Source of the DNA: Escherichia coli
GTDB lineage: Bacteria; Pseudomonadota; Gammaproteobacteria; Enterobacterales; Enterobacteriaceae
Assembly (NCBI RefSeq): GCF_003334355.1
Contig: NZ_QOWP01000072.1
Length of the DNA: 2,676 nt
Reading direction: 5' to 3' (one strand)
Position 1 is the first letter of the stretch. Each line of letters begins with the position of its first letter. Made by a program: the position numbers and the translations under genes. The notes beneath the pieces were generated by a model, which ran no database searches, had not been told where the DNA came from, and saw only the letters and a program-made list of their open reading frames with translations. Shown one piece after another: positions 1 to 2,676 of the stretch.

Positions 1-394
1 TTTCTTCCGCCTCCCGGATCCGGAACAGTTTTTCTGCTTCCGTATCCTTCACCCAGGCTGTGCCGTTCCACTTCTGAAACTCCCCTTCCGGCGATAACCA
101 GGTAACATTTTTCGGTAACGGACCGAGTTCAGAAATAAATAACGCGTCGCCGGAAGCCACGTCATAAACCGTTTTACCCCGATGATCTTCAACGAGATGC
201 CACGATGACTCATCACTGTTGAAAACAGCCACGAAGCCAGCCGGAATATCTGGCGGTGCAATATCGGTACTGTTTGCTGGCAGACCTGTATGAGGCGGAA
301 TATATGCATCACCTTCACCAATAAATTCATTAGTTCCGGCCAGCAGATTATAAATTGTTATGGTCCGTGGTTGTTCACTCATTCTGAATGCCAT
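1..394 (-). CDS. tfa: Tail fibre assembly protein / fibre chaperone (Tfa family); 3'-partial (first 131 codons, 394..2, plus one base of the next codon; C-terminal part outside window)
   Basis: ATG at 394..392 on the minus strand. Hand translation gives [131 protein letters not shown] with no stop down to position 2. From memory this is near-identical to the N-terminal domain of lambda Tfa and E. coli prophage Tfa paralogues. Sits directly 3' of stf with a 1-nt overlap. The track's 49..330 minus ORF is a different frame of the same DNA. Confidence 0.93.
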
Positions 395-2676
395 TATGCA
401 AGCCTCACAATATAGTTAAATGCGATGTTTTTGACGGTGTTTTCCGCGTTACCAGCAGCGTTAACGGTGATGGTGTGTCCATGTGAGCCAATCGCAACGG
501 AGTGCGTATGAGCACCAATACCGACAGTATGTGCGTGTGCACCTGCGCTTGCAGCAGTACCCGATACAGAGTGCGTATGAGCGCCTGCAGAAGAAGTGTT
601 AACACTGTATTTAGAATAATCAGGTGATCCACTTCCCGGAGCACCACTGGAACCACCTGAAACAAATGTCATCGAATGGGTATGTGCACCGGCTGAAGCA
701 GCCGTACCGCTAACACTATGGGTATGTGCACCAGTGTTATTCGTGGATTTAGTGCCGTAATCAAACGATGATGTGGTTTTCGTCCCCAAATCCGTACTGG
801 ATGCGCTGGCGCTGTGGGTGTGCGATTTAATGCCGTCCTGTTCCTGAGACAATACGGCACGACCACTGGCGGGCTTGCCCTTAATCGTCCAGCCACGCAT
901 ATCAGGAATAACGCCTGACGGATAAGCCACTGCAAGTTTCGGGTATGCAGATTTGTCAAAAGTCTGCCCCTGCATCAGGGCATAGCCAGACGGAACGGTA
1001 TCTGATGGCCACGGGATTGGTGCGCCGACTGGGTAGCTTTCTGGTGGAAGATTTTTCGAGGTATAAACTTCTGCCCAGTCATCCTCAAAACCATAACCGT
1101 CTCTTGAAGAACGGTAGAACAGACCACCATTTCTGTAATGCGCCTTCATCTGCAGGGTCCGGCAACTTCCGACTCCGGTATAGAAGTTAACCAGAATATA
1201 GCTGTCGCCAGAGCGAGTGACATTGTAAGCGCCTGATTCGGCATTCCATGGAACGCCACCATCCGCATCGGCATATGTATCCGTTGCCCTTCTGGCAAAA
1301 GCAGCCACATGCGCGGCGGTTAAAGTAATATCTTTGGAACCATCAAACTCAACACCAGAAACCCGTCTTGGCGTTTGCAGCTTTGTTGCTGTTAATGCAT
1401 TACCGTTCAGACTTGCGGACAGTTTGGTTCCAATAACCAGTTCGCCGGTTGCGTTATCAATAGCAAACGGTCTTAATGTATTCCAGCCACCATAAACATC
1501 ACCTTGATTGGTAAGCAGCAGGTAAGTTTTAGCGCCATCATTACGCCATAATGCACCATACTCTCCACCTATCATTCGAATCTGATTACCACCACGCGCT
1601 ACAATTTCGTCTGTGGCAAAAAGTTTTTTGCACGACAAGTTATCGTTAACGATTAACGAATGAGACTCATAAAAACCACGCCCACTCTTAAAATCAAGGA
1701 TAACGTCCGCCGCGATACATTCAGTCGCTGGATTTGTTGCCCCAAACTTATAGGTCGTATCATTAACAACGAGATCAGCACCAGGTGCGGATATTGACAG
1801 GCCATCTTCGATAAACGCAAAAACAGGGAAAGCAGCGCCATCAACATAGAACACAGAGCGCAAATCATCGCCCTTATTACTCATCATTATTGAGTGGATG
1901 GCTCGTTCATTGTTTTGATATTGCCAGAACATTCCATAAGCATAACGCCCCCTGTCAGTCCAGCCACCAGGCATAACAAATCCATTAAACTCGCAGTTAT
2001 TCATCGGATCGCCTGCGGTTCGCGTTGCCGTGGTGATAATGACCCTTGATGCCAGTTCGCTTACTGAGCCAGCAGAACGCATAACAACAACAGGGTAATA
2101 TTTTCCAGATGTTGCACCTGCAGGAGCGTTAACCCGCACATAACGCATACCACGCTTATCAGCAAAGTCTGTTTTACTGACCGCGTTAATGTTGTTCAGG
2201 AAGCGTCCCTTATCGGGTATATCAGCGCCGTTCTGGTCTTTCTGCAGACGTTTCTCTGCATTGTCATAGGCTGATTTTACTGCCTTTGGCGTTGCCGCCA
2301 GCGTTTCAGACGTACTGTTGGTCGCACTGCTGAGCTGTACTATCCCCTTTTTCGTCGTGCTCGCATCCTCAAGCGCCACGGCGGATGCAATATCCTCTGC
2401 CCGTTTTGCTGCTGTCTCGGCGCGCGTTGCCGCGGATTCCGCCGTACTTTTGCTCTGAGCTGCCGCTGCCGCACTGCCAGCAGCCTCTGTCGCCTTCGTG
2501 GATGCCGTCGTGGCGCTGCCCTTCGCTGCTGACGCCTGTCTGGTCGCCTCATCTTTTGAAGCAGACGCAGATGATGCCGATGACGCTGCCGAACTGGCGG
2601 ACGATGCGGCTGCCGTTTTTGAGGATTCTGCACGGGTTTCCGACGCTTTCGCGTTCGTTTCGGATGTCTTCGCTGC
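394..2676 (-). CDS. stf: Side tail fibre protein, lambdoid Stf family; 5'-partial (N-terminus beyond window end 2676); 760 sense codons in window plus stop TAA at 396..394
   Basis: Hand translation of the minus strand from 2676 down is continuously open in one frame to TAA at 396..394. The track's 661-aa ORF (394..2379) is this frame cut at an internal GTG; upstream in frame reads [46 protein letters not shown]... with no stop or start codon. Contains the conserved tail-fibre motif [30 protein letters not shown], a collar-like motif ([39 protein letters not shown]) and a C-terminal HxH array ending ...[11 protein letters not shown]. Followed immediately by tfa, the canonical stf-tfa order. 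Family call is from recalled similarity to lambda/Rac-type Stf, not a search. Confidence 0.93.
403..407 (-). promoter_or_regulatory. Probable Shine-Dalgarno element for tfa (TGAGG) inside the last codons of stf
   Basis: Minus strand upstream of the tfa ATG reads TTGTGAGGCTTGCATAATG: GAGG at 406..403 lies 8 nt upstream of ATG (394..392). The stf stop TAA (396..394) shares its last A with the tfa ATG (TAATG). Confidence 0.5.
472..825 (-). repeat. Protein-level repeat array within stf: seven His-X-His motifs (SHTHS, AHTHS x4, AHAHT, SHGHT) in Gly/Ser/Ala-rich context; predicted metal-binding fibre-tip (needle) region
   Basis: Direct translation of the last 143 codons of stf: [10 protein letters not shown]...[27 protein letters not shown]...[66 protein letters not shown]. 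Visible on the + strand as recurring gtgcgtatgagc / atgggtatgtgc motifs. This is a sub-region of the stf CDS, not a separate gene. Confidence 0.75.
826..1041 (-). other. Collar-like segment of Stf ([63 protein letters not shown]), immediately N-terminal to the HxH array
   Basis: Direct translation. The pattern (aromatic/Ala-rich stretch followed by IPDMRG-W-KG) resembles the 'phage tail collar' motif recalled from T4-type and lambdoid fibre proteins. The domain call is from pattern memory only. Confidence 0.4.
2263..2352 (-). other. Conserved tail-fibre motif ([30 protein letters not shown]) shared among tail fibres of otherwise unrelated phages (P2 H, Mu S, lambda Stf, T4 gp34/37 class)
   Basis: Direct translation. 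From memory the motif closely resembles the conserved segment described in comparisons of P2, Mu, lambda and T-even fibre genes. Position is within stf, just C-terminal of the Ala/Ser-rich segment. Confidence 0.55.
2380..2676 (-). repeat. Ala/Ser/Thr-rich low-complexity segment of Stf (includes the [12 protein letters not shown] motif and a [15 protein letters not shown] tract); presumed extended fibre shaft/linker
   Basis: Hand translation of the same frame as stf: [97 protein letters not shown]. The DNA is GC-rich and dominated by GCN/TCN/ACN codons. Sub-region of the stf CDS. Confidence 0.7.

Follow-up and report, generated by a model that had tools for sequence, protein, structure and literature searches.

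The side tail fibre gene (stf) and the tail fibre assembly gene (tfa) of an Escherichia coli prophage meet in a one-base TAATG overlap, with the ribosome-binding site of tfa embedded in the end of stf. Our analysis of the window, a 2,676-nt stretch of E. coli DNA, confirmed that this arrangement is real, conserved, already annotated and ordinary. Both genes lie on the minus strand, where, within 460..340, the last fibre codons read AAC TAT ATT GTG AGG CTT GCA TAA and the strand continues TGG CAT TCA GAA TGA. The stf stop and the tfa start have the A at 394 in common, as the sequence-only reading had described. The GAGG core lies within the stf codons GTG AGG (Val-Arg) and is separated from the A of the tfa ATG by 8 nt (402..395), which bears out the placement of a Shine-Dalgarno site inside the last fibre codons. 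TAATG occurs seven times on the minus strand of the window.

The junction is already known and typical of phage late operons. The earlier remark that such overlaps are common there was correct, the lambda late operon containing four 4-nt and two 1-nt overlaps. This junction establishes which codon starts tfa and backs both gene calls, adding little beyond confirmation of the annotation.

Gene identities and source locus

At 100% identity, the window matches a Qin-type lambdoid prophage carried by E. coli PSS-12 (locus L001), in which pinQ and ydfK adjoin the stf/tfaQ pair. RefSeq annotates stf in this locus at 4933..8283 (1116 aa) and tfaQ at 8283..8858, including the one-base overlap. The stf frame is without a stop from 2676 down to its TAA, and the tfa frame, whose translation begins MAFRMSEQ, is open from its ATG down to window position 1; tfa is a co-directional gene directly downstream of a fibre-domain gene. 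Stf matched Phage_fiber_2, Gp34_trimer, Collar and Phage_fiber repeats in Pfam and phrog_295 (tail fiber protein) in PHROGs. Tfa matched Caudo_TAP (PF02413; E = 8.8e-43, residues 72-191) and phrog_105 ('tail fiber assembly'; E = 1.5e-98, residues 1-191) and is 94% identical to lambda orf-194. Its residues 127-191, which lie outside the window and were taken from L001, matched PDB 5YVQ chain B, the 'Tail fiber assembly protein U' of Mu (E = 4.7e-8). NCBIfam gave no match for Stf or Tfa.

Judged by these matches, the products are a tail fibre (Stf) and a tail-fibre assembly protein (Tfa), and tfa is the last gene of the lambdoid late tail operon. The two gene calls and the tfa start proposed from the window agree with RefSeq on L001, with lambda orf-314/orf-194 and with the annotation of lambda imm21.

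Table 1. Coordinates of the junction features in the 2,676-nt window
Feature	Position	Strand	Description
tfa 5' part	1..394	-	tfaQ-type tail fibre assembly protein; first 131 of 191 codons
Predicted weak hairpin	377..416	-	GAGG paired with tfa codons 2-3; -10.4 kcal/mol
Met5	380..382	-	second in-frame ATG, 12 nt downstream of ATG1; the one other possible start, rejected
TAATG stop/start overlap	392..396	-	stf TAA 396..394 and tfa ATG 394..392
stf 3' part	394..2676	-	side tail fibre; 760 codons plus stop TAA; gene runs past the window end
GAGG Shine-Dalgarno core	403..406	-	putative; in stf Val-Arg codons
In-frame TAA upstream of tfa	416..418	-	24 nt before the ATG; position 8259 of L001

The embedded Shine-Dalgarno site and the tfa start codon

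Pairing of GAGG with the 16S rRNA tail is predicted at -5.6 kcal/mol. Sites that pair equally well or better precede 9.5% of all positions and 18% of the 55 minus-strand ATGs, so that the match is within chance and not significant in a single sequence. An argument from codon rarity inside stf alone was likewise rejected: AGG serves at five of the 43 stf Arg codons, four of them besides the junction, and the junction AGG therefore proves nothing in one sequence; the argument holds only across many. Both observations are compatible with GAGG being a mere by-product of a conserved Val-Arg pair and shared ancestry, with no functional ribosome-binding site.

The comparative data, not the single sequence, are what place the arrangement beyond chance. 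Among 114 distinct junctions that code for the conserved C-terminal end of the fibre, 110 bear Arg at the junction position, encoded by AGG in 87, by AGA in 23 and by CGN in none, whereas AGR accounts for 20% of the 1802 Arg codons in the rest of these genes (raw counts, without phylogeny). AGG and CGG are one synonymous step apart, yet that step is absent from all 110 junctions. The preceding Val is enriched too, being GTG in 103 of 112 cases (92%) compared with 29% elsewhere in the same genes. Synonymous sites neighbouring the Val-Arg pair are well mixed, and the AGG/AGA choice, together with the third positions of the adjacent Ile, Asn, Tyr and Ala codons, has turned over many times. Shared descent does contribute to the AGR statistic: in 20 junctions no ATG-started ORF of 90 codons or more opens within 80 nt of the stop, and 16 of these 20 still carry AGR, five with a possible GTG or TTG start close by. 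These counts show that the embedded Shine-Dalgarno site is under selection at the nucleotide level. GAGG is very probably a functional Shine-Dalgarno site, and the by-product reading is scarcely credible.

The tfa start is almost certainly ATG1. The tfa frame is stopped by the upstream TAA (Table 1), which makes a start further upstream impossible, and it holds no ATG, GTG or TTG between that TAA and ATG1. The phrog_105 alignment begins at Tfa residue 1, and the junction is identical to that of the window in 80 of 84 close relatives. Initiation at Met5, with the TAATG overlap a coincidence, is very improbable, although this in-frame codon lies close behind ATG1 and Met is frequent at that position among lambda-type relatives. 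Met5 has no Shine-Dalgarno site in range (predicted pairing -1.5 kcal/mol) and is replaced by Ile in the natural variant MTFKISEQAQ. Phe3, ahead of Met5, is kept while its codon switches synonymously between TTC and TTT, and N-termini one codon shorter (MFRM, MFEM) keep the frame and still lie directly against the stop. Exchange of the upstream fibre gene points the same way: in four IMG/VR loci the same Tfa follows a different fibre gene with the same ATG start, its own GAGGTGA and an 8-nt gap, the new Shine-Dalgarno site being placed for ATG1 and not for Met5.

Several other features of the junction were considered. A Stf-Tfa fusion by frameshift or read-through is contradicted by the TAA in the tfa frame 24 nt upstream, and no slippery heptamer was seen in the last eight stf codons. 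Inversion of a fibre segment by the nearby pinQ was discarded, with no meaningful inverted repeats flanking the stf 3' end or tfa. A consensus scan of the minus strand near the junction gave no promoter- or terminator-like site, its counts equalling the shuffle expectation; such a scan cannot prove co-transcription. RNA structure masking the Shine-Dalgarno site is predicted without statistical support: the hairpin (Table 1) is no better than shuffled sequence (z = -1.07; 28 of 200 shuffles fold equally well), the fold of the 111-nt junction context gave z = -0.06, and the structure is only weakly recurrent. The paired probability of the Shine-Dalgarno core is 0.84 here and averages 0.60 across 80 junctions, a slight excess over the 0.42-0.53 of neighbouring stretches.

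Conservation of the junction across phages

In lambda, orf-314 (stf, 21029..21973) and orf-194 (tfa, 21973..22557) have the same one-base overlap. Lambda and the E. coli K-12-type stfQ/tfaQ and stfR/tfaR pairs have the same junction sequence, GTGAGGCTTGCATAATG, and the same spacing of the ribosome-binding site, and the lambda imm21 record annotates this site 8 nt before tfa, as in the window. The prophage position beside pinQ and ydfK is held in common as well. Lambda DNA is 93% identical to window 1..543 and has no counterpart of 1027..2275 (fibre shaft, with the Gp34_trimer domain), but the junction itself is the same.

The P2-like H/G-type pairs of STYP1, SEN1, ESSI2_ev040, EtG and SKA5 encode the same fibre C-terminus, ...NIAFNYIVR(L/A)A, and have the same AGR-containing Shine-Dalgarno site and GCATAATG overlap, which is annotated in these five phages as it is in lambda. 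These phages differ in their contractile tail and in chaperone N-terminal domains that are just 34-65% identical or unrelated; the overlap is kept with Tfa proteins of only 34-65% identity. Across the 114 distinct junctions the overlap measures 1 nt in 75 and 4 nt in 17, an ATG overlap in 92 (81%), and 72 different chaperone N-termini follow the overlapping junctions.

Homologous chaperones also follow gaps, of 8 nt (the four IMG/VR loci), 12 nt (Yersinia P744) and ~27 nt (T4-type). In the T4-type gene 37/gene 38 pair, a homologous chaperone (29-32% identity) is encoded directly after the distal fibre gene, as here, with a Shine-Dalgarno site adjoining the fibre stop codon. That junction differs in having no overlap: TAA is followed by GGAG, a GC-rich hairpin, GGGGCTTCGGCCCC, and then ATG.

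Probable translational coupling and its alternative

The geometry suggests a termination-reinitiation route in which tfa would be translated from ATG1 by way of the embedded GAGG. On ending stf, a ribosome would release the fibre chain right at the tfa ATG, 8 nt past the Shine-Dalgarno site, and could then reinitiate at tfa, so that Tfa synthesis would track Stf synthesis on the same mRNA. Such coupled supply would suit a chaperone that attaches to the fibre tip at a set stoichiometry. Chaperones of tail-fibre assembly do bind the tip, in a 3:3 ratio in phage Pam3, and remain in Ur-lambda and Mu virions (PMC9608196). Coupling requires that two genes overlap or lie very close together, and gene pairs of this kind are over-represented among the subunits of heteromeric complexes (PMC10666635).

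The closest measured systems are the overlapping pairs (ATGA, TGATG, TAATG) of Huber et al. (PMC6728339, PMC10666635), which resemble stf/tfa: the genes are co-directional with a -1 overlap, the upstream gene contains a Shine-Dalgarno site and the products form a complex. Coupling is a measured property of those pairs and a predicted one of stf/tfa. Translation was strictly coupled in 13/14 tested overlapping pairs, 5 from E. coli (PMC6728339). Our literature search, which did not cover lambda ribosome profiling, found no paper on the stf/tfa junction or its coupling; in a tetracycline start-site study tfaS was the only tfa gene mentioned.

We consider it probable that translation of stf and tfa is coupled, and a dependence of tfa translation on stf translation is a reasonable inference from the published E. 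coli tests of such overlaps. A possible, though doubtful, alternative retains the same start and Shine-Dalgarno site but has tfa initiated mainly by ribosomes binding de novo; Tfa output would then be independent of stf translation, and the overlap would reflect genome compaction and a fixed fibre C-terminus. De novo initiation needs just such a selected, well-spaced Shine-Dalgarno site, homologous chaperones are expressed with the 8-, 12- and ~27-nt gaps described above from Shine-Dalgarno sites of their own, and the hairpin that might mask the site is not significant. Lambda PaPa points in the same direction: its stf is split by a frameshift into orf-401 and orf-314, and the phage is nevertheless reported to supply Tfa activity. 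Against de novo initiation stand the strict coupling of almost every native 1-nt or 4-nt overlap that was tested (PMC6728339) and the retention of the overlap in 81% of diverse junctions whose downstream genes are completely different. Moreover, a terminating ribosome physically covers the tfa start site, which makes some interaction of termination and initiation unavoidable. If coupling is true, it would explain how a phage matches chaperone production to that of the fibre with no regulation of its own for the chaperone.

More speculatively, and on balance improbably, the last four fibre codons and stop (GTG AGR GCN/CTN GCA TRA-TG) could form a portable 'junction cassette', kept by RNA-level selection and common to lambda-like, P2-like and other phages ahead of at least 72 different chaperone N-termini, that might serve as a fixed joint for exchanging fibre tip and chaperone as a coupled unit. 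In that case a translation signal, and not fibre function, would in part account for the strict conservation of ...VR(L/A)A at the fibre C-terminus. A practical caveat applies to tail-fibre engineers who swap receptor-binding tips: since the last fibre codons carry the putative ribosome-binding site of the chaperone, recoding them (for example AGG to CGT in codon optimisation) or splitting the two genes may cut chaperone supply.

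Layout and origin of the stf/tfa junction

The side tail fibre gene stf and the tail fibre assembly gene tfa meet on the minus strand within 460..340 as ...AAC TAT ATT GTG AGG CTT GCA TAA TGG CAT TCA GAA TGA GTG..., and re-reading confirmed all coordinates that the sequence-only reading had assigned to the stf stop, the tfa start, the shared A and the GAGG with its spacing.

Coordinates of the stf/tfa junction in the window
Feature	Position	Strand	Basis
stf frame	open from 2676 (window end) to TAA at 396..394	minus	ORF reading
tfa frame	ATG at 394..392, open to position 1	minus	second frame
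Stop/start overlap	A at 394, common to stf stop and tfa start	minus	sequence
GAGG	406..403; spacer to ATG 8 nt	minus	sequence

The downstream product belongs to the Tfa family, matching Pfam Caudo_TAP (E = 8.8e-43) and PHROG phrog_105 'tail fiber assembly', the latter in an alignment beginning at residue 1, with its 65 C-terminal residues matching the solved structure of the Mu tail-fibre assembly protein (5YVQ). The upstream protein, Stf, contains Phage_fiber_2, Gp34_trimer and Collar domains and weak Phage_fiber (GAHxH) repeats. Relative to lambda, stf is a mosaic: window 1..543, 748..1026 and 2276..2531 are 93%, 87% and 82% identical, and the shaft (1027..2275, minus strand) is without a lambda counterpart and includes the Gp34_trimer domain, known elsewhere from the proximal long fibre of T4. 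A 20-nt direct repeat, present four times in 497..732 with 70-100% identity, is the DNA of Gly-Ala-His-x-His-Ser repeats near the fibre tip, a weak Pfam Phage_fiber match. Where stf encodes its Ala/Ser-rich part, another frame of the minus strand holds an Arg-rich ORF of 97 codons (2340..2633), which is apparently no gene and seems to arise from the GC-rich, repetitive coding sequence.

The E. coli PSS-12 chromosome is 100% identical to the window, parts of which are found in 4605 of 5426 complete E. coli genomes. The PSS-12 locus is a lambdoid prophage in the Qin-type position, its genes running J, lom, stf, tfaQ, pinQ, ydfK, ynfT. RefSeq annotates the identical one-base overlap in this prophage (L001; fibre gene 4933..8283, tfaQ 8283..8858), phage lambda has the same layout (orf-314 21029..21973, orf-194 21973..22557), and in the lambda imm21 record the tfa start (21961) is preceded, at a distance of 8 nt, by an annotated ribosome-binding site (21949..21952). 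Public annotation thus already covers the arrangement, which is known. The lambda junction recurs here in a Qin-type prophage, behind a different fibre shaft. The sole addition of the present analysis is cross-family codon evidence for selection on the embedded Shine-Dalgarno site, together with a four-codon junction that recurs before many different chaperones.

A pinQ-type serine recombinase gene lies outside the window (L001 8956..9546), ~100 nt downstream of tfaQ, an arrangement also seen in phages whose fibre segments can invert. Neither the stf 3' end nor tfa is flanked by convincing inverted repeats in L001, so the locus seems to be without an invertible segment.

Codon choice at the embedded Shine-Dalgarno site

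From the window sequence alone, the embedded ribosome-binding site is not beyond chance: 9.5% of all positions and 18% of ATGs on the minus strand are preceded by a site of at least equal strength, and AGG is used for five Arg codons in the window stf. Comparison decides the question. A scan of viral contigs for DNA that codes for NIAFNYI, the conserved C-terminal peptide of the fibre, left the downstream sequence unconstrained and yielded 114 distinct junctions with four further codons and then a stop. The Arg codon is AGG in 87 and AGA in 23 but never CGN, with Lys (AAR) in 4 sequences, against 20% AGR among 1802 Arg codons elsewhere in the same fibre genes. The preceding Val is GTG in 103 of 112 (29% elsewhere) and the last Ala is GCA in 83 of 102 (31% elsewhere); adjacent synonymous sites are mixed (AAC 71/AAT 43, ATT 56/ATC 55, TAC 62/TAT 52). 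AGG to CGG is one synonymous step and is never seen, so selection on nucleotides is indicated, as an embedded Shine-Dalgarno site predicts, and the junction codon choice points to such selection. The raw counts overstate this evidence, since the 114 sequences are related by descent and AGR is kept in 16 of the 20 junctions in which no ORF of 90 codons or more opens with an ATG at most 80 nt from the stop.

Shine-Dalgarno-like tetramers are scarce on the coding (minus) strand of the whole window, at about half the frequency expected from base composition: GAGG, GGAG and AGGA occur 7, 4 and 6 times, with ~13 expected for each.

Recurrence of the overlap and probable translational coupling

A 1-nt overlap (TAATG or TGATG) occurs in 75 of the 114 junctions and a 4-nt overlap (GCATGA) in 17. 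In the 20 junctions lacking an ATG-started ORF of the kind defined above, GTG stands at the ATG's position in one (TAGTG), and in four an ORF of 152-170 codons opens with TTG 8-10 nt past the stop. Chaperone N-termini vary widely, with 72 distinct N-terminal decapeptides behind the overlapping junctions. The P2-like phages STYP1, SEN1, ESSI2_ev040, EtG and SKA5 share GCATAATG with the window, their Tfa being just 34-65% identical. The lambda late operon, with four 4-nt overlaps (A/W, W/B, Z/U, H/M) and two 1-nt overlaps (M/L, orf-314/orf-194), bears out the earlier remark that this layout is common in phage late operons, and the geometry is thus typical of them. Unlike the window, Yersinia P744 has a 12-nt gap, and T4-type phages have a ~27-nt gap holding GGAG and a GC-rich hairpin. 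The T4-type gene 37/38 junction (L091, L092) is GCATAAGGAGAGGGGCTTCGGCCCCTTCTAAATATG, with the Shine-Dalgarno site immediately after the stop and the hairpin occupying the spacer up to the ATG, and is a different solution for a homologous chaperone.

Several matches to the fibre C-terminal motif were observed in each of L095, L110, L134, L163, L177, L180 and L200, some contigs having 2-4 copies, on both strands in L095, L177, L180 and L200. Several copies have no chaperone gene after them, an arrangement that hints at duplicated fibre-tip cassettes or multi-segment invertible ones.

In its sequence features the stf/tfa junction fits a coupled overlapping pair, and termination-reinitiation is probably its best reading: ribosomes ending stf would reinitiate at the overlapping tfa ATG, aided by the embedded Shine-Dalgarno site, which would tie chaperone supply to fibre supply. 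Coupling was strict in 13 of 14 native overlapping pairs tested, five of the 14 from E. coli, with a Shine-Dalgarno contribution that differed between genes (PMC6728339). Coupling collapses at a gap of ~20 nt, and subunits of heteromeric complexes are enriched for such overlaps (PMC10666635). In tail-fibre assembly chaperones, a variable N-terminal domain binds the fibre tip and a conserved C-terminal domain mediates trimerisation; phage Pam3 shows a 3:3 ratio, and the chaperones are retained in Ur-lambda and Mu virions (PMC9608196).

Coupling through unmasking of a structured tfa start site is not really supported: a hairpin in which GAGG pairs with tfa codons 2-3 (-10.4 kcal/mol) has z = -1.07, the wider 111-nt junction context has z = -0.06, and in 80 junctions pairing of the Shine-Dalgarno core exceeds that of neighbouring stretches only slightly. 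Initiation of tfa at the same site and ATG, independently of stf, is still live because relatives function with short gaps between fibre stop and chaperone start, and we regard it as rather unlikely beside termination-reinitiation. No promoter-like or terminator-like sites above chance were found at the junction.

The tfa start codon

The overlapping ATG is very probably the tfa start. A TAA at 418..416 closes the tfa frame 24 nt upstream, and the intervening codons include no ATG, GTG or TTG. Among the first 40 codons Met5 (382..380) is the sole alternative; it has no Shine-Dalgarno site and a best 16S-tail pairing of -1.5 kcal/mol versus -5.6 for the overlapping ATG. The N-terminus in lambda-type relatives is M-x-F-(R/K/E)-M, in which the Phe codon switches between TTC and TTT with the residue constant, so these codons are translated. 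Shorter N-termini (MFRM, MFEM) likewise abut the fibre stop, and Ile replaces Met5 in the variant MTFKISEQAQ. Four IMG/VR loci (L045, L054, L007, L063; about 2990..3003) encode a near-identical Tfa (MDFRMSEQ...) after an unrelated fibre C-terminus (...KQYSVSDIK, stop TAG), with a new GAGGTGA within the 8-nt gap placed for the same ATG. In these loci another fibre tip has become linked to the chaperone gene. The unrelated fibre C-terminus before Tfa is ...GAHTHTLNKQYSVSDIK, and the exchange point lies at Tfa codon 2 (MAF versus MDF).
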